NCBI RefSeq assembly: GCF_028641065.1
Contig: NC_073388.1
Location: forward strand, 14,012,001-14,076,000
Direction of reading: 5' to 3'
Length of the DNA stretch: 64,000 bases
DNA from: Leucoraja erinacea
Lineage: Eukaryota
In this document: one piece after another, positions 5,471 through 63,062 of the stretch
How positions within the stretch are numbered: position 1 is the stretch's first letter
Layout: each line of letters starts with the position of its first letter
Position numbers and translations under genes: made by a program
Notes under the pieces: generated by a model
The model's input: the letters and a program-made list of their open reading frames with translations, nothing else
Database searches by the model: none
Told to the model about the DNA's origin: nothing

Positions 5471-5625
5471 AAAACTATCTTTTAAGCCAGAATGGGAACA
5501 ATACATGGGGATCTTGTTATCGGGAGGAATTGGTTTATAGCAGTGAAATTCCCAAATCCATGAAGAAAAGTTCAGACAGTTCAAAGGGGAACCATTTGAT
5601 AAAGTTGACATGCTCTTTTAGAAGT

Positions 5626-5777
5626 AGACACAAAATGCTGGAGTAACTCAGTGGGACAGGCAGCATCTCTGGAGAAAAGGGATTCCTTCTCTGCAGAGAT
5701 GCTGCCTTTCCCGCTGAGTTACTCTGGGATTTTATGTCTATCTTCGATTTAAACCAACATCTGCAGATCCTTCCTAC
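5626..5777. mobile_element. Hairpin (inverted) PLE terminal-repeat insertion with 18-bp TSD
   Basis: Two opposite-orientation halves; ACATGCT(C/T)TTTTAGAAGT at 5608-5625 and 5778-5795. Confidence 0.7.
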
Positions 5778-5837
5778 ACATGCTTTTTTAGAAGTTGGTC
5801 TCAGATTTGTGCTGTGGAGGGCCATTCGGCTTCCGAA

Positions 5838-7059: not shown

Positions 7060-7730
7060 TAGTGATAGGAGCAGAATTAGGCCCATCAAGTCTCCTCCGC
7101 CATTCAATCATGGTTGATCTATCTTTCCCTCCTAACCCCATTCTCCTACTTTGTCCCCATGACCCCTGTGCTAATCAAGAATCTATCTATCTCTACCTTA
7201 AAATATCCATTGACGGACTGCACAGCCTTCTGTGGCAATGAATTCCACAGATTCACCACCCTCGGATTAAATAAATTCCTCCTCATCTTCCTCAATGAAC
7301 ACCCTTTAATTCTGAGATTATTACCTTTGGTCCTAGACTCTCCCATTAGTGGAAACATCCTCTCCACATCCACTCTATCTAAGCCTTTCCCTATTCGGTA
7401 AGTTTCAATGCCCCTCCCCTCCCCTCCTCTCCTCCTCCTCTCCTCCTCCTCTCCTCCTCTCCTCCTCCTCCCCTCCCTCATCCTTCCAAACTCCAGCGAG
7501 TAGAGAAACCCGTTGCCGTCAAACGCGCATCACACGTTATTTAACCCACTCATTCCTGGGATAATTCTGGTAAACCTCCTCTGGACCATCTCCAGAGCCA
7601 CCACATCCTTCCTCGGACATGCCCCCCAAATTGCTCACGATACTCCAAAGGCTGTCTGACCAGCGCCTTGTAGAGCATCAGCATTGAATCCCTGATTTTG
7701 TATTCCAGTCCTCTGGAAATAAATGCTAGT
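7060..7730 (-). mobile_element. CR1 LINE 3' fragment containing a (CCT)n expansion (~7410-7480)
   Basis: ORF 7146-7481 encodes GLDRVDVERMFPLMGESRTKG...FNPRVVNLWNSLP, a CR1 C-terminal motif. Confidence 0.88.
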
Positions 7731-8195: not shown

Positions 8196-8298
8196 ATGGA
8201 TGCATCAGAGCCGCCCAACGCGGTCAGGAGATCCCGCAGCTTCCACTTTAAGAGCCTGACAACATTCCTCGGCAAAATGAGCAACCGAAGAGCAATAG
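8196..8298 (+). CDS. Probable first coding exon of the DLC-family RhoGAP (MDASEPPNAVRRSRSFHFKSLTTFLGKMSNRRAI + G)
   Basis: ctgccATGG Kozak; 34 codons + 1 nt ending at the donor ATAG|GTAAGG. The phase-1 end joins the AG at 54197 to give GAG (E) of E-Q-E-A-K. Assignment is by phase and context, not by homology. Confidence 0.65.
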
Positions 8299-22454: not shown

Positions 22455-22895
22455 TATAACCATATAACAATTACAGCACGGAAACAGGCCATCTCGACCC
22501 TTCTGGTCCGTGCCGAACACATAATCTCCCCTAGTCCCATACACCTGCGCTCAGACCATAACCCTCCATTCCCTTCCCATCCATATAACTATCCAATTTA
22601 TTTTTAAATGATAAAAACGAACCTGCCTCCACCACCTTCACTGGAAGCTCATTCCACACAGCTACCACTCTCTGAGTAAAGAAGTTCCCCCTCATGTTAC
22701 CCCTAAACTTCAGTCCCTTAATTCTCAAGTCATGTCCCCTTGTTTGAATCTTCCCTACTCTCAGTGGGAAAAACTTTTCCACGTCAACTCTGTCTATCCC
22801 TCTCATCATTTTAAAAACCTCTATCAAGTCCCCCCTTAACCTTCTGCACTCCAAAGAATAAAGCCCTAACTTGTTCAACCTTTCTCTGTAACTTG
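22455..22895 (-). mobile_element. Young CR1 LINE 3' end
   Basis: Uninterrupted ORF ([25 protein letters not shown]...WNELP); closely similar to 38435-38862. Confidence 0.9.
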
Positions 22896-23394
22896 TCCTT
22901 GAATGATTCCTGCTTCTGATCAGCAATTGGTATTTTGGTTGAAAAGTACATAAGTGAAGGAGGTATAAGCAAATGCTGGTTCACAAAATCTGACACAGAG
23001 TACTGGAGTAACTCAGCGGGTCTGGAGAACATTGATAGGTGACATGTCGTGTTGGGACCAAAGATAAATAATCCTCGGGCAACTAATCATTTCTCAGCTA
23101 AGCTTTTTGACCCGAGGAGAATTGCAGTGATCCGTGGTTTCTCAACTTGACTTGTATGCCAAGAGTCAGGCTGAGAAACCATGGACCATACAATTCTTCT
23201 TGTCCAAGAGTTTACTGAAAAAATGGCTAGTTGCCTGAAGATTTGTAATCTCTGTAGAATTGTAGCAGAACAGGGGCGCAGGGAATCACAGAGGGGGGAG
23301 GGGAGGGGGGGCATTGAAAGAAGCTCTCACCTTCGAGTGAGGAGGTGAACTTCTTCAAAGTAGGCCATACTTTGAGGAGATTTAGCACTCCACA

Positions 23395-23605
23395 ACGTGC
23401 TGGAGTAACTCAACGGGTCAGGCTACAGTCTGAAGAAGAGAACTTGACCCAAAGTGTCGCCCACCTCGTCTTCCAGAGATGAAGAAGGGGTTTGGCCCGA
23501 AATGTTGCCTATTTCCTTCGCTCCATAGATGCTGCTGCACCCGCTGAGTTTCTCCAGCAGTTTTGTGTACCTTCGATTTTCCAGCATCTGCAGTTCCTTG
23601 TTGAA
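23395..23605. mobile_element. Cluster of PLE terminal-repeat fragments
   Basis: ctgaagaag...accc and gaagaaggggtttggcccgaaatgttgcc followed by the terminal-repeat body. Confidence 0.65.
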
Positions 23606-24324
23606 CACTTCCAGAGATTATGCCCAATATTCCAGCACTTTGTTCTCTACAAAATATCTGAGCCAATTCTTGAGTTTCTCTTCTCCTTTGGGGATGGGCG
23701 GTGTGGCTCTTTCTGTGCTGCCACCATTCTTGTTTAGCATGCAGGTCTTGTTTCCTTTAGCCATGTTTTGTGTTTCGATTGGAGTACTGTTTTAGCTCTC
23801 TGTTTTGGGCCGGACTGGCATTTAAAACCTCACCCATGGCTGATGGTTTCAATCCAAATCTTTTCAAGTCTGACATCAACTTTCCACATAGTAGATTCTT
23901 CTCTCATGTGATTCAGAGGCAACACAGCAAGTATGTAAAGGTTGGCAACATACAGCTACTGACAGCAAGGAAACTACTTCAACATTCCATGTCACTGCCT
24001 ATGCCAATCATGATAAGATGTCACAAAAACAATAGCTTGAGGGATGGGCTTCTCCCTCCCAGCTTCTAACCGTCACCTTCTGCTTTATCTATTTCTCTCC
24101 TTTGTCTTATTATACTTTTCTCTTCTGTATGTTGTTGATCTCACCAGCTTCCTTCAGCATCTTTCCTTCTTCATCCAACAATTTCTTTCCCATGGTTACA
24201 CAAAAAAGCTGGAGAAACTCAGCGGATGCAACAGTATCTATGGAGCGAAGGAAATAGGCAACGTTTCGGGCCGAAACCCTTCAAAGGGTTTACACATCTA
24301 CTATGTGTAATTTCTTTCCCATGA

Positions 24325-38434: not shown

Positions 38435-38862
38435 GGTTGAACAAGTTAGGTCTTTATTCTTTGGAGCGCAGAAGGTTAAGGGGGGGACTTGATAGAGGTC
38501 TTTAAAATGATGAGAGGGATAGACAGAGTTGACGTGGATAAGCTTTTCCCATTAAGAGTAGGGAAGATTCAAACAAGAGGACACGGCTTGAGAATTAAGG
38601 GACAGAAGTTTAGGGGTAACATGAGGGGCAACTTCTTTACTCAGAGAGTGGTAGCTGTGTGGAATGAGCTTCCAGTGGAAGTGGTGGAGGCAGGTTCGAT
38701 TTTATCATTTAAAAATAAATTGGATAGGTATATGGACGGGATAGGAATGGAGGGTTATGGTCTGAGTGCAGGTAGATGGGACCAGGCGAAAATAAATGTT
38801 CGGCACGGACTTGAAGGGCCGAGATGGCCTGTTTCTGTGCTGTAATTGTTATATGGTTATAT
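38435..38862 (+). mobile_element. Young CR1 3' end
   Basis: ORF 38489-38845 is nearly identical to the 22531-22926 peptide. Confidence 0.9.
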
Positions 38863-39049: not shown

Positions 39050-39680
39050 ATATTACAAGGATGCTGTCAGAGCTTGAGGGAGCAGGCTAGGACTGTATTC
39101 TTTAGAGCATAGGAGTTTGACTTCGAGATGTATAAGAGCATGAGGTGAATAGATAAGGTAGATGCACAGAGTCTTAGACCCAGAGCATTGGAGTCAAGAG
39201 CCTGAGGACATGGGTTTAAGGTGAGAGGAGAAAGATTTAATTGGGTTGAAGGACCTTTTCATGCTGTTTCTCTAAACTAAACTAAAACTTTCTAACCAAT
39301 ATCTCATAAGCATTTCATTAGCTGGAAAGAATGCAGCGAAGATTAACCAGGACATTGCCAGTACTTGAGGGCCTGAGCTATAGGGAAAGTTTGAGCAAGC
39401 TAGGATTACATTCCTTGGAGCCTCGGAGTTTAAGCAGTGATCTTGTAGAAGTGTATAAGATCTTGAGGGAAATAGATAGTCGACGCACAGTCTTTGACCC
39501 GGAGTAAGGGAACCCAGAAGCAGAGGACATAGGTTTAAGGTGAGAGGAGAAAGATTTAATTGGAATCTGAAGGGCAACTTTTTCACTGATTGTGGGTATA
39601 CAGAATGTGCTGCCAGAGGAGGTAGTTGAGAGAGAAAGTATAATAACATTTAAAAGGTAGATGGACAGGAAAGGTTTAGA
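39050..39680 (+). mobile_element. Two degraded CR1 3' fragments
   Basis: Repeated ggtttaaggtgagaggagaaagatttaattgg; CR1 tail motifs. Confidence 0.75.
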
Positions 39681-39745
39681 GGGATAGAGAGAGGGATAGA
39701 GAGAGGGATAGAGAGAGGGAGAGGGATAGAGAGAGGGAGAGAGAG

Positions 39746-39796
<51 letters not shown>

Positions 39797-39847
39797 TAGA
39801 GAGAGAGAGAGGGATAGAGAGAGAGAGAGGGATGAAGAGAGAGAGAG
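39678..39847 (+). repeat. (GA)n/GGGATA compound microsatellite
   Basis: Directly visible; grows out of the CR1 sequence ggtttagagggata. Confidence 0.95.
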
Positions 39848-40280
39848 TGATGACACGCTGCAATAAGTCACTCCCATCAGCACTGCTGAGTTTATTTGAA
39901 GTCACTCAGCCTGAAGTCGGCTTTTTCCTCAGCTTTGCCATGGAATTACTTGGCATCAAATTAGAATCGTGGAGAGCAGCGGTGACTTTAGATCTACTTG
40001 TTGTCGGGGCTGTAGCCTTGTGAATCCGGATGGTGGGATGATCGTGAGGGACGGCAGTAAATCAGGTTGGAATTGGCTGCTGAGTTCTTTCTAAAGCATC
40101 TGTCTGGAGTCACATTCTTCAGACAAAATAGACGCACCGTATTCCCGAATTCGGGAGCTGGATAATTGATTCTTTTCTTTGTTGGCCGTGAGGGATGCGG
40201 GTGGGATGGGATATGTGGCCATGGGGTAATAAGGTGGGAGGAAGGGGCGGATAGGGGTGAGAAATAATCATTTGAGCTGA

Positions 40281-42049: not shown

Positions 42050-43690
42050 AGAGTCAGTCTTACAGTGTGGAAACAGGCCCTTTGGCCTAACTTTGACCCA
42101 TACTGACCAGTATGCCCCATCTACACTAGTCCCACCTCCCTGCATTTGGCCCATATCCCTCTAAACCTATCCTATCCATGTACTTGTCCAAATATTTTTT
42201 AAATGTTGTGATAGTACCTGTCTCAAATACCTCCTCTGGCAGCACGTTCTATTTACCTCCCACTCTTGTAGGGGAAAACCCTCCAGTTCCTATTAAATCT
42301 TTCCCTCTCACCTTAAACCTATGTCCTCAGGTTCTTGTCTCACCTACTCTGGGTAAAAGACTCTGTGCGTTTACCTCATCTATTCCTCTCATGACCTTAC
42401 ACATCTCTACAAGATCACCCCTCACCCTCCTGCTCTCCAAGGAATAAAGTCCCAGCCTGACTAACCACTCCCTATAGCTCAGGTCCTGGCAACATCCTTG
42501 TAAATCTTCTCTGCATCCATTCCTGTGTAATAACATCTTTCCTCTGACAGGGTGATCAAAACTGAACACTAGCCTAATTGTGGCCTCATCAATGTCTTGT
42601 ACAATTGTAACATGACCTCCCAACTTCTATACTCAATACTCTGATTTTTAAATGCCAATGTGCTGAAAGCCTTCTTGATTACCATATTTACCTGTGATGC
42701 CACTTTCAAGGAACTATGTACCTGTACTCCGAGATCCCTCTGGTCTACAGCACTCCCCAGAGCCCTGCCATTCACTGTGAAGGTCTTGCCCTGGTTAGAC
42801 TTCCTAAAATGTAACACTTTGCACCTCTCTACATTAATCTCTATCAACCATTCCTCATCCCATTGGCTCAACCGATCAAGATCCTGTAATGTTTGACAAC
42901 CATTTTCACGATCTACAAGACCACCCACTTTAGTGTCACCTGCAAACTTACTAATTATGTGTTGTGCGTTCTCATTCAAATCATTGCTGTAAATGAATGA
43001 ATGAATGAATGCACTTATTGTCATTGCACAATACTGTGCAACGAAATTCCATTGCATCTCCTCAGGTTAAAAAATACAAACACGACAACCATTGACACAT
43101 ATGTACACTTATTAGTAAAATAATAAATAAGTATTTAAAAATAATTTAAAAGAATTTACCGGCATTTCTTGGAATTACATTTTGCTTCCCCAGTGTTCTC
43201 TGTTGGAATTAAGTTCTTTTATCAGACATGGGTAGAAACTATTGTTTAGTCTACCGGTGCGAGCCTTCAGAGACCTGAATTGCTTCCCAGAGGGTAGCAG
43301 AGTGAAAAGGTGGTTGGCAGGGTGGGATGTGTCCTGCTTGATGTTTGTGGCCCAGCGCGAGCATCGGGGCCCTATATATATCATCCAAGGAGGGCAGTTG
43401 ATTGTTTGTAATGCTCTGTGCAGTTTTTATAACTCTCTGCAGCACCCTCCTCTCAGCCACAGTACAGCTAGCAAACCACACCAAAGCAAATGACATACAG
43501 CAATGGGCCCAGCACTGCATCCTGAGGCTCACCACTAGTCACAGGCCTCCTGTTTGGAAAACAACCTTCTATCATTACCTTCTGCTTCCTTCCTTGAAGC
43601 CAGTTTTCTATCCATTTAGCTACCTCTCCTTGGTTCCCATGTCACCTAACCTTCCAGAGCAGCCGACCATGCAGAACCGTTTCAAATGTC
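42050..43690 (-). mobile_element. CR1 LINE RT fragment interrupted by a Rex1-type LINE
   Basis: ORFs 42569-43057 (ISKFAGDTKVGG...KCKVLHF-like...RDLGVQVH) and 42327-42623. Confidence 0.88.
42991..43490 (-). mobile_element. Rex1/Babar-type LINE 3' end
   Basis: LQRVIKTAQSI...LPSLDDIY and DTSHPANHLFTLLPSGKQFRSLKARTGRLNNSFYP; (ATTC)n tail; AAATGA duplicated at the flanks. Confidence 0.8.
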
Positions 43691-53686: not shown

Positions 53687-53830
53687 CAGGATAGATGAAG
53701 GGAGGTGAGAGGAAGTTTATGTGGAGCTAATAGGCCAACTGATCTGAATCTGTGCAATAAATGACCTTCATTTCTGTGTCAAATACTTTGCATATCGTAG
53801 CTGTGTGGCTGAGCAACAGTTAATTGACTA

Positions 53831-54164
53831 CACAAAAAATGCTGGAGAAACTCAGCGGGTGCAGCAGCATCTATGGAGCGAAGGAAAAAGGCAACGTTTC
53901 AGCCCGAAACCCTCTGGGTTTCGGCCCGAAACGTTGCCTTTTTCCTTTGGGTTTCGGCCCGAAACGTTGCCTTTTTCCTTTGGGTTTCGGCCCGAAACGT
54001 TGCCTTTTTCCTTTGGGTTTTGGCCCGAAACGTTGCCTTTTTCCTTTGGGTATCGGCCCGAAACGTTGCCTTTTTCCTTCGATCCATAGATGCTGCTGCA
54101 CCTGCTGAGTTTCTCCAGCGTTTTTGTGTACCTTCGATTTTCCAGCATTTGCAGTTCCTTCTTA
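53831..54164. mobile_element. Hairpin PLE terminal-repeat insertion with 16-bp TSD
   Basis: AACAGTTAATTGACTA at 53815-53830 and 54165-54180; inverted arms of ~80 bp. Confidence 0.85.
53916..54080 (+). repeat. Tandem repeat, 5 x 33 bp (GGGTTTCGGCCCGAAACGTTGCCTTTTTCCTTT)
   Basis: Units start at 53916, 53949, 53982, 54015 and 54048; the later units differ by only 1-2 nt. Confidence 0.95.
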
Positions 54165-54196
54165 AACAGTTAATTGACTAACTCTTTTTGTTACAG

Positions 54197-54268
54197 AGCA
54201 GGAGGCTAAAGACGCATGTGATTGGCTGCGGGCAGCAGGATTTCCTCAGTATGCACAGCTCCATGAAG
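54197..54268 (+). CDS. STARD8: SAM-domain exon of a DLC-family RhoGAP/START protein: (E)QEAKDACDWLRAAGFPQYAQLHE
   Basis: Acceptor ctctttttgttacAG, donor G|GTGGGT; 72 nt, phase 1/1. The peptide matches the DLC1/STARD13/STARD8 SAM start EIEAKEACDWLRAAGFPQYAQLYE. Family is secure; the paralog name is a best guess. Confidence 0.93.
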
Positions 54269-54579
54269 GTGGGTGTGGCCGCAGGCCTTATTTATTTGTG
54301 TTTTGAAAGGGAGAGGACGAAGGGGAAACTGTGGCCCTGAGAAATTAGTTTTAAATCTGCCGTCTGAGAACAATGCCAACCCCCAGGATGTGTGGTATTG
54401 TCCCCGAAATCAGAAGCCGTCTTTGTGCCTCCTCTGTTTCCATCAGTTGCTCTTCTCTATTTTTTACCCAAGTGGATGTTTCTTAAGTAACATAACGGCT
54501 GGGAGGCCACAGGGATTGTAACAGTCCAAAATAGCTCATTACTGCTTCCCCCAGGACACTTAGAGACGGGCATTGAATG

Positions 54580-54865
54580 ATCGATTGATTGAAAGATACA
54601 TCATGGAAACCGGCAGACCATCGGTTACCTGCTCACACTAGTTCTACAGTATATTATCCCATTTACGCTTCCACTCCCTGCACGCTAGGCTCAATTTGCA
54701 GAGGCGTATTAACCTACAAACCTGTACATCTTTGGAGTGTGGGAGAAAACCTTTGCGGTTACAGAGAGAATGTACAAACTCTGTGCAGACAGTAGCTGTA
54801 GTCAGGATCGAACCAGGTTCTCTCGCGCTGTAAGACAGCAACTCTACCGTTGCGCCACTGTGCTG
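54580..54865 (-). mobile_element. HE1/V-SINE
   Basis: Family motifs. Confidence 0.82.
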
Positions 54866-55177
54866 TCCATTTTGTATGTGGGCATGATATTGACCTGTTT
54901 CCAACCTGTAGCATCTCTTCAATATCCACCATAGGCCAAAAGCTTATTTGGTGGTACAGCCATGCCCTGAATGCTAATCTCCTCGCGTTGAGTTCTGCAG
55001 TCATCGTTAGTGGAGGTGGTGTTTTCTCGAGACCATTCTGCTACCTGGCTTGATGATCTAGGTACTCGTCTCCCAGGACCTGGACCAGCCTTCCCTTTCC
55101 ACAGTATCAGTAGATACTCTCGAGCCACATTGGCTTCTGAAGAATCACTTCATCTGCAGCTGGAGTTCACCTGCTTG

Positions 55178-55478
55178 GTTTAGCTTAGTTTAGAGATGGA
55201 GTGCGAAAACAGGCCCTTCGGCCCACCGAGTCTGTGCCGACCAGCGATCCCCGCACACTAACACTACCCTGCACACACTAGGAGACCATTTACAATTTTA
55301 CCAAACTTAATTAGCCTACAAACCTGTACATCTTTGGAGTGTGGGAGGAAACCGGAGCTCCCAGAGAAAGCCCACACAGGTCAGTGGGAGAATGTATAAA
55401 GTTCGTACAGAGTCGGGATCGAACCCGGGTCTCTGGCGCTGTATGGTAACAACTCTGCCACAGCATCACTGTGCTGTC
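55178..55478 (-). mobile_element. HE1/V-SINE
   Basis: Family motifs. Confidence 0.85.
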
Positions 55479-56454
55479 CTACTCTTTAACCTGCTCTTTA
55501 AGAGCTAAAGATAGAGTTGAAGTTAAACTGGTACAGGCAAGTGCCAGGTTTTTTTTTTTTAAATTAATTCCCTACTTCATTGAGATTCCAGCATTCCTAT
55601 CTTGTGGCTTTGAGATCCCTGACAAGTCATGGAGTGCCTGCTCCCTACTTTCAGAACTAATAATCCGGAGTTAACAAATGGTTAACTTCTCGATTTACTT
55701 TTGTTTTAAATATTTATTATCTATTATAATGGAGCTTCCTGTTTTAAAATTCTATACAAAACCTTTATGTGGGCACTTTATATATTTGATTAAAGCAAAC
55801 ATTTTAAGTGCAATAAAGGCTTGACAGTAACTCTGTGTGACCCTGGGAGGGTCGGCAGGGAACAATTACTGGAAGTAAAGCATGCAGAGAACTGATCTTT
55901 CGCCAGTTCTCCTCTCTCTTACTCAACTCTCACCCTCGGGCTAACAGCTTGCCCCTCAACGAAAGCACATGTTGTTGCTCCCTTTGGGAAAATTGCTTCC
56001 ATCCCGGGAAAAGGAAATCCCAGTCATTGCTGCCTATACATTCCAGTGTGGCATTTGTTAAATCTCCGTTTGAACTGGACTGCCTGCAAAGTTGGGGGAA
56101 AGCGCTGAAATTATGTTGAGCTTACGTTGCCCTTTGGTTTCCCTTAGACCACTGCCCATACAAAGCAACCTTCATTGTGTGCAGTTCTGTCCTGAGATTG
56201 CAGCTCAGTGCTCACACTGTTCCTTCACTTCATCTGTGTCTACCGAGACATTAACTGCTCTAGACAGCCTTTTTAATCTGTACTGAATGAAACAGGACGG
56301 GTCCTGTTTAGATCATTTCCGTGACACCAAGGTCGTTACCATTTTCTATTTTACGTGCTGCAGTCACAATGCTAGAATGTTGATGACAGTTCTATATCCA
56401 ACTGACCCCATGAGACTGTAACACCAGCTCCATGAGAATAGTCACAGCACTATG

Positions 56455-56757
56455 GATCGCACGGTGGCACAGCAGTAGAGATGCTGCCTTACAGCACTAG
56501 AGACCTGGGTTCAATCCTAACCACGAATGCTGTCTGTACAGAATGTGTGCGTTCCTCCTGGGACCACGTGGGTTTGCTCCGGGTGCTCTGGTTTCCTCCC
56601 ACACTCCAAAGATGTACAGGGTTGTAGGTTAATTTACTACAGGAAGTTGTAAAATTGTCCCTAGAGTGTATTTTAGGTTAGTGTAAGGGGTGATCGCTGG
56701 TCAGTGTAGACTTGGTGGGCTGAAGGGCCTGTTTCAGCACTGTATCTCTGAAGTCTG
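56455..56757 (+). mobile_element. HE1/V-SINE ending ~40 nt upstream of the exon acceptor
   Basis: Full head, V-domain and tail. Confidence 0.87.
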
Positions 56758-56799
56758 AATACTGCACTTAGATGAATGATTTTATTCCTTATTTTTCAG

Positions 56800-56881
56800 A
56801 CTCCCATTTTCCTATTGACATCACAGCTGTCAAGAATGATCATGATTTTCTCGACAAGGATTCATTGAAATCTGTGTGCAG
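56800..56881 (+). CDS. STARD8: Second SAM-domain exon: (D)SHFPIDITAVKNDHDFLDKDSLKSVC(R)
   Basis: Acceptor tttattccttatttttcAG, donor AG|GTAACT; 82 nt, in frame with the previous exon. Matches the DLC-family DxxFPIDIxxVKxDHDFL motif. DSLKS looks more STARD8-like than STARD13 (DLVEP) or DLC1 (DAIEA), although AVKNDHDFL is STARD13-like. Confidence 0.92.
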
Positions 56882-57165
56882 GTAACTGCTGTTAGGCTTT
56901 ATAAATTGTGCCCTTTGCTTCTCCATCGATCAAGATCAGAATCAGAAATGTTTATTTGTCATCTGCATTGGATATGAACTGGGACAGGTTAAGGTTTATT
57001 GTTCTTGCAAGTAACTAGGTACAGTGGAAAGCTTTGTTTTGCATGCTCTACAAACACATCCCATACATCAACCAATTCAAACCCAACTCCAATAGATCGA
57101 ACAAAGGGGAAGATGCATGCTGTAGCTTTACAGATCCATTAGAATCAAAAACGACAATGAATATA

Positions 57166-62966: not shown

Positions 62967-63062
62967 AGTCTGAAGAAGGGTCTCGACCCGAAACATCACC
63001 CATTCCATTCTCTCCAGAGTTGCTGCCTGTCCTGCTGAATTACTCCAGCTTTTTGTGTCTAT
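62967..63062 (+). mobile_element. PLE terminal repeat with a near-intact hammerhead core
   Basis: CTGAAGAAGGGTCTCGACCCGAAACATC at 62970-62997. Confidence 0.72.

Follow-up and report, generated by a model that had tools for sequence, protein, structure and literature searches.

The 64-kb window analysed here (64,000 nt of Leucoraja erinacea DNA) is a skate STARD8 locus, since four of its exons (8196-8298, 40038-40065, 54197-54268 and 56800-56881) have translations identical to Leucoraja erinacea STARD8 isoforms X1 and X2; batoid STARD8 proteins were the best full-length relatives in a protein search. All four lie on the plus strand. The first two ranges are the coding parts of alternative first coding exons with phase-1 donors, namely exon 1a (8196-8298; tblastn to skate proteins) and exon 1b of isoform X2 (40038-40065; 9/9 residues identical to the protein), both of which splice in phase 1 to the first SAM exon (54197-54268). 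As the preliminary description of this DNA had claimed, the latter follows the acceptor AG at 54195-54196 and is 72 nt long and frame-neutral (phase 1-1, GT donor); the second SAM exon (56800-56881) has 82 nt. Exon 54197-54268 encodes the first half of the SAM domain: the four PDB sequences that it matched are all DLC1 or DLC2 SAM domains, and its Pfam SAM matches are weak and below the cut-off. In these four exons the locus is the same as the known STARD8/DLC3 RhoGAP (SAM-RhoGAP-START), and the coding part seen holds nothing unusual.

Several smaller features accompany these exons. The stretch upstream of exon 1b resembles the start of a sawfish isoform, and an AG-type purine-rich microsatellite occupies 39678-39851, about 190 nt 5' of the start codon of this alternative first exon. 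The acceptor of the first SAM exon reads CAG/AG/CAG at 54196-54201, and the frame would change if either of the alternative AGs, 2 and 5 nt downstream, were used.

Architecture of the insertion

The intron upstream of the first SAM exon carries a 334-nt insert between direct repeats, with an effective insertion point at 54165, 32 nt 5' of the exon and 16 nt upstream of the adenosine A54181. The flanking repeat AACAGTTAATTGACTA is, as claimed earlier, an exact 16/16 match (53815-53830 and 54165-54180, plus strand); this score of 16 compares with scores of at least 12 in 0.2% of 930 mismatched flank pairs, and the upstream copy was also read correctly as TGACTAC (53825-53831). The edges of the repeat overlap the element ends by 4 nt on the right (AACA) and 2 nt on the left (TA, the last two nucleotides of the upstream copy). 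The closest sibling of the repeat unit (23494-23610, 91% identical) has AACA at its end too, and TA is common to siblings at the opposite end; the target-site duplication is therefore 10-16 nt long, with microhomology at both edges. Its downstream copy is the original exon-proximal intron sequence, and its core AGTTAATTGACT is self-complementary as RNA, with two G-U pairs.

Between the repeats, an inverted piece (53831-53912, minus strand) is followed by three linker bases, a 33-nt tandem, a sense arm and a 39-nt tail. The inverted piece, a truncated copy of the repeat unit that has no tail, provides the left arm of a hairpin, and a sense copy of the unit (54048-54125, plus strand) provides the right arm; the arms (53835-53912 and 54048-54125) are 78 nt long and 92% complementary, enclose a loop of 135 nt, and give the insert region a fold z of -17.8 relative to 100 shuffles. 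Filling the loop is the 33-nt tandem (53911-54079, plus strand; 5.1 copies, 97% matches), whose unit begins at hammerhead stem II and has no CUGANGA box, and whose last unit continues into the sense arm. The tail, a term that we use as in earlier work (PMC8557442, PMC11167929), occupies 54126-54164 on the plus strand at the right end only, measures 43 nt when AACA is counted to the element, and has pyrimidine-rich CAGs at 54145 and 54154. The preliminary description had pictured an approximately 80-bp inverted-arm hairpin immediately 5' of the splice signal. The inverted arms are there, whereas the roughly fivefold 33-nt tandem in the loop and the one-sided tail had been overlooked, and the hairpin stands 39 nt from the downstream repeat, the length of the tail, and 56 nt from the proposed branch adenosine. 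Open frames of 105-117 aa over the insert were considered as genes and rejected as a product of the 33-nt period.

Relationship to Penelope-like elements

The inverted truncated arm, the one-sided tail, the 33-nt tandem and the putative hammerhead boxes found in siblings together make up the usual insertion anatomy of Penelope-like elements (PLEs). In truncated Penelope/Poseidon insertions an inverted truncated copy likewise lies beside a sense copy, and a 30-40-nt tail at one end only is described as typical (PMC8557442); in anole Poseidon, the tail is reported to span the distance from one internal start site of reverse transcription to a second (PMC11167929). Two end points about 40 nt apart also recur among skate copies: when 11 hand-picked pieces were aligned (2 from the insert, 9 from 30 other clusters), 6/11 ran through the tail and 5/11 stopped about 40 nt earlier. 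Anole Poseidon synthesis is described as beginning 111-118 nt past the start of hammerhead stem II (PMC11167929), and stem II lies 117-121 nt from the element end in the skate family, a likeness of about 120 nt in both. The targets are alike in being AT-rich with ATT on both strands, which anole Poseidon cleavage is reported to favour (PMC11167929): the centre of the skate target is AATT, and the duplicated 16-mer is 75% AT with AAT/ATT at 53822-53825, a weak criterion since such triplets are common. The skate insert differs from Penelope/Poseidon copies in having no reading frame or CUGANGA box, with 334 nt being too short for a frame that codes for a reverse transcriptase (RT) of the telomerase-like type and a GIY-YIG endonuclease, and in the internal 33-nt tandem that fills its loop. 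Its ends also show microhomology of 2-4 nt, whereas anole Poseidon is reported to prime without homology in vitro (PMC11167929).

A minimal-hammerhead descriptor made for this analysis gave three matches, all in sibling copies, compared with 0 in 28 and 1 in 2 of 30 shuffles. The matches carry an unpaired base, a G-C opening pair and a palindromic loop 3, features described for the minimal hammerheads of metazoan PLEs (PMC4209133). With the minimal hammerheads of PLEs and non-LTR retrozymes, siblings have in common CUGAAGA, a single unpaired base, stem II opened by G-C, GAAA and a palindromic ACGT. Helix I is weak in siblings, one of which folds no better than shuffles, and Rfam gave no hammerhead match, nor any match that reached gathering score across the 64-kb window; miRNA-type hairpin matches of Rfam around the insert were below threshold and were rejected as generic hairpin matches. 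The insert copy itself is neither a ribozyme nor a retrozyme, because CUGANGA is absent from both strands of 53815-54180. Non-LTR retrozymes are defined by a complete type I hammerhead motif in at least two consecutive tandem units (bioRxiv 10.64898/2026.07.22.740005); the skate insert has head-to-tail tandem units as they do, but its 33-nt units contain just half of the hammerhead core and fail this definition. Complete minimal-hammerhead boxes occur in the sibling copies at 62970 (plus strand), 58874 and 3000 (both minus strand). The 5' end of many family copies falls at the hammerhead core or shortly before it, a hint of a short, non-autonomous RNA some 120-135 nt long.

By its anatomy, then, the insert is likely a truncated product of a Penelope-like retroelement. 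The anatomy supports what the preliminary description had proposed, a PLE-type insertion that lies beside the first SAM exon and is flanked by a target-site duplication; PLE membership is likely and not established, because the parent element was not found. A metagenome scan for the family gave three loci with 23-24-nt matches only, which we take as chance, and no parent RT/GIY-YIG frame among them. The word 'Penelope' has no occurrence in the main text of two little skate genome papers (PMC9605692, PMC10115646), and the literature searched holds nothing on the STARD8 insertion locus; the repeat family may already be catalogued in Repbase or Dfam.

Abundance of the family in the window

The repeat family of the insert forms 31 clusters in the window, and a direct repeat scoring at least 9 flanks 9/31 of them (the insert among these; internal duplications may account for some), compared with 1.2% of 930 mismatched pairs. 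A count of clusters with both orientations (26/31) was set aside: two of the queries are themselves hairpins, and a near-palindrome lies within the unit. At least 31.5% of the window consists of dispersed repeats, and one of these ends at most 35 nt upstream of 7.3% of the non-repeat positions. Another hairpin copy of the family, at 5608-5795, has an 18-nt flanking direct repeat (one mismatch) and a tail at one end, and similar short duplications lie at 1019/1127, 7756/7869, 24180/24309 and 41424/41574.

Other repeats adjoin the gene as well. A SINE-like repeat at 56450-56760 (end at about 56752-56760) stops about 40 nt short of the second SAM exon's acceptor, and two more SINE copies lie in the same intron in the opposite orientation, at about 54550-54870 and 55150-55480; we presume these SINEs to be of the HE1 type. 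Open frames at 7146-7529, 22531-22980, 38480-38845 and 42569-43066 resemble 3' fragments of LINE reverse transcriptases, and we liken them to, and name the neighbouring LINE repeats as, what we assume to be the CR1 type.

Splice signals and inclusion of the SAM exon

The best match to U2 upstream of the first SAM exon is TGACTAAC (54175-54182, plus strand), which occurs three times on the plus strand of the 64 kb and whose CTAAC places a candidate branch adenosine at 54181 (-16), ahead of the polypyrimidine tract and acceptor AG (54183-54196). The earlier claim of a consensus branch sequence is borne out in this respect, but the adenosine at -16 has two rivals, at -20 (TTGAC, A54177) and -24 (TTAAT, A54173). 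Most branch points are reported to lie 18-37 nt upstream, a range of which -16 falls short, with predicted positions extending from 14 (PMC8531310). Both rival yUnAy motifs lie wholly inside the repeat and are duplicated too; their upstream copies have no pyrimidine tract behind them. When staggered nicks give rise to a target-site duplication, the exon-side copy and everything after it are the original sequence. The branch-point sequence was thus kept, as the preliminary description held, but its preservation is automatic for any duplication-flanked insertion upstream and calls for no special event. The insert adds pyrimidine-rich AG sites, brings no yUnAy motif between 53827 and 54173, and leaves all in-frame upstream AG extensions running into the TGA at 54175.

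Annotated proteins consistently include the exon. In a cluster of eight skate proteins it is present in 5/5 N-terminally complete members, one of which comes from an assembled 3.8-kb contig, and the other three, as fragments, begin after it; the exon is also present in 13 of 17 batoid proteins, four start downstream, and none joins the first exon directly to the second SAM exon. A search for a skipped form among shorter proteins gave 61 matches without any skate STARD8 fragment and was thus uninformative. In an RNA run, of which about 5 in 100 was read, depth is about 3.7 on the last 27 nt of the SAM exon and 0 over 54336-54523, and four reads from two starts cover 56813 in the next exon. These data, in which the displayed joints are those of SINEs, fit inclusion of the SAM exon, with about four reads being too shallow to measure skipping or exclude a minor effect, and come from an animal that may or may not carry the insert. 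A search for runs gave no RNA run as a holder of the sequence, which is uninformative as to expression. The effect on exon inclusion that had been suggested for the insert therefore finds no evidence in the skate and batoid proteins, and the insertion likely leaves splicing of the SAM exon essentially unchanged.

The position of the insert is one where effects on splicing are on record. Mammalian intronic elements are described as depleted within 50-100 nt of exons (PMC3088655), the zone in which the skate insert falls, and five of the polymorphic Alus assayed near alternative exons (21.7%) are reported to have altered splicing (PMC6326789). The skate insert resembles both groups in lying less than 100 nt from an exon on its acceptor side. 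It differs from them in being beyond the zone of less than 20 nt and common to species labels, and in that the exon beside it is in every annotated isoform seen.

Predicted pairing between the two repeat copies

The self-complementary core would allow the two 16-mer copies, which the hairpin unites, to pair with each other. The self-duplex of the 16-mer reaches -12.6 kcal/mol, as do 2/398 AT-rich 16-mers and 5.6% of 3000 random 16-mers of the window. Across 33 choices of folding window, the predicted copy-to-copy pairing over 54175-54179 varied from 0.04 to 0.97: it was 0.67-0.97 in all six folds ending at 54200 or 54210, 0.14-0.84 in six ending at or before the AG, and 0.04-0.13 in all nine that held the whole exon, and it is present in the minimum-energy fold of 53800-54200. 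The openness of 54175-54182 with the whole exon folded was 0.52 with the insert and 0.55 without it, compared with 0.37 and 0.51, respectively, when the fold ended at 54200. Any masking of the branch region by the self-complementary 16-mer is therefore predicted to be transient only, and is model-dependent.

Age and sharing between skates

Four of 24 listed sequencing runs, three of DNA (species B, C and F) and one of RNA, were compared with the window over 54148-56950, which covers 17 nt of the insert. The three SINEs of the intron drew most of the records, so that the joints and loose ends displayed are SINE rows, with 1393 joints and 3438 loose ends beyond them and counts incomplete for C and F. 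Contigs of species B (54150-54736, 4 differences in 587 nt) and species C (54150-54270, no difference in 121 nt) lead from the element tail across the repeat into unique sequence, and an empty allele would match just 2/15 of the covered tail positions; the contig of species F, the most distant of the three, begins at 54180 and is uninformative on the junction, which is seen filled in 2/3 DNA runs. The preliminary description had proposed a check for an empty site with a single 16-mer, and no such site was seen among the records displayed for B, C and F at the right junction. Divergence from the window is 1.7% for B, 1.8% for C and 5.5% for F, as estimated from displayed pieces (8/8, 7/8 and 3/8, respectively) after SINE-only pieces had been dropped. 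As little skate heterozygosity is reported to be 1.6% (PMC10115646), B and C are very close to the sequenced animal, and ancestral polymorphism may be shared with them. At 56813 the window has a synonymous T, for which the RNA reads (4/4) and species B, C and F have C.

The arms of the hairpin differ at 5/81 aligned positions and by one indel, or 3.1% per arm (95% interval 1.0-6.9%). If both arms came from one template, this divergence would exceed the drift of either lineage since its split from B or C (about 0.9%). At such a divergence the probability of an identical pair of 16-mers is 0.37, rising to 0.61 under constraint on the exon-side copy, so that the perfect repeat does not speak for recency. 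A younger age of the 33-nt array was considered and is not supported (2 changes compared with about 5 expected, P = 0.12). Together with the shared right junction, these comparisons make it likely that the insertion is older than the split between at least three skate species.

Discussion

We hold with good confidence that the 334-nt insertion with its 10-16-nt duplication, 32 nt 5' of the first SAM exon of STARD8, is likely a truncated PLE product, that it is likely older than the separation of at least three skate species, and that the splicing of the exon is likely essentially unaffected by it. By analogy with PLE biochemistry, a GIY-YIG endonuclease would have nicked the AT-rich AATT site on both strands, and reverse transcription would have started from two places inside the element RNA, about 40 nt from each other, giving one arm with the tail and one without, possibly assisted at its start by the 2-4 nt of microhomology; repair would then have duplicated the target. 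Slippage between short repeats of CCT, at the time of insertion or later, may have given rise to the 33-nt array. From the geometry of the duplication, the stretch from 54165 to the exon would be original sequence, and the insertion would at no time have disrupted branch site, pyrimidine tract or AG. It presumably survived because it landed upstream of the acceptor signals and brought no branch motif for its YAG sites.

Two other readings would give the insert a role in splicing. In one, the hairpin unites the two 16-mer copies and masks the U2-binding UGACU while the exon is being transcribed, and partial in-frame skipping would yield STARD8 with a broken SAM domain. The rarity of so stable a self-duplex among AT-rich 16-mers of the window and the strong pairing in folds that end shortly after the acceptor, the minimum-energy fold included, speak for such modulation, but the pairing nearly vanishes in the nine folds that include the whole exon and the 17 batoid proteins contain no skipped form; we consider it improbable. 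Its stronger version, in which the self-complementary duplication makes a retroelement hairpin a transient branch-point mask and hence a source of tunable, in-frame, SAM-less STARD8 that would be absent from relatives with an empty site, strikes us as slightly more improbable. Engineered sequestering of a branch sequence reportedly has published precedent. Were the stronger version true, PLE scraps that form hairpins and have palindromic targets would serve generally as a source of structural switches for splicing in cartilaginous fish. The other reading has the insert acting through new cryptic acceptors that divert some transcripts to stop-containing, degraded forms. With its tail in the sense orientation, the insert adds pyrimidine-rich YAG sites at 54089, 54118, 54145 and 54154, with 11-14/17 pyrimidines compared with 12/17 for the true acceptor, and the native CAG at 54169 has 11/17 compared with 7/17 for its upstream twin. 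Against these sites stand the stretch from 53827 to 54173 with no yUnAy motif, the stable stem in which 54089 and 54118 sit, and the 17 proteins with no extended form, though degraded forms would escape notice there, and such diversion seems highly improbable.

The remaining alternative concerns age: the preliminary description took the perfect duplication to mean a recent insertion, possibly still polymorphic for presence or absence. The identity of both 16-mer copies and of tandem units 1-3 would agree with recency, as would the very close relationship of species B and C and the high heterozygosity of skates. The right junction is, however, common to these two other species labels, the divergence of the arms gives an identical 16-mer pair a probability of about 0.4-0.6, and the displayed records hold no empty allele, so that we do not uphold this view and rate recency as very unlikely. 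An old, shared insertion with essentially normal splicing is the account that we favour.

Read in this way, the insert is one of about 31 copies of a common family that by chance landed just outside the acceptor signals, and it matters little as it stands. It would matter more only if pairing of the 16-mer copies changed inclusion of the SAM exon, as the SAM domain is reported to steer the localisation of human DLC3 (PMC6343526). Its value lies elsewhere: it shows the anatomy of a PLE insertion cleanly in a skate, and it can serve as a presence/absence marker for skate phylogeny. The 33-nt minisatellite at 53911-54079, between its short CCT repeats, is in addition a candidate length polymorphism and is likelier to vary than the insertion itself.
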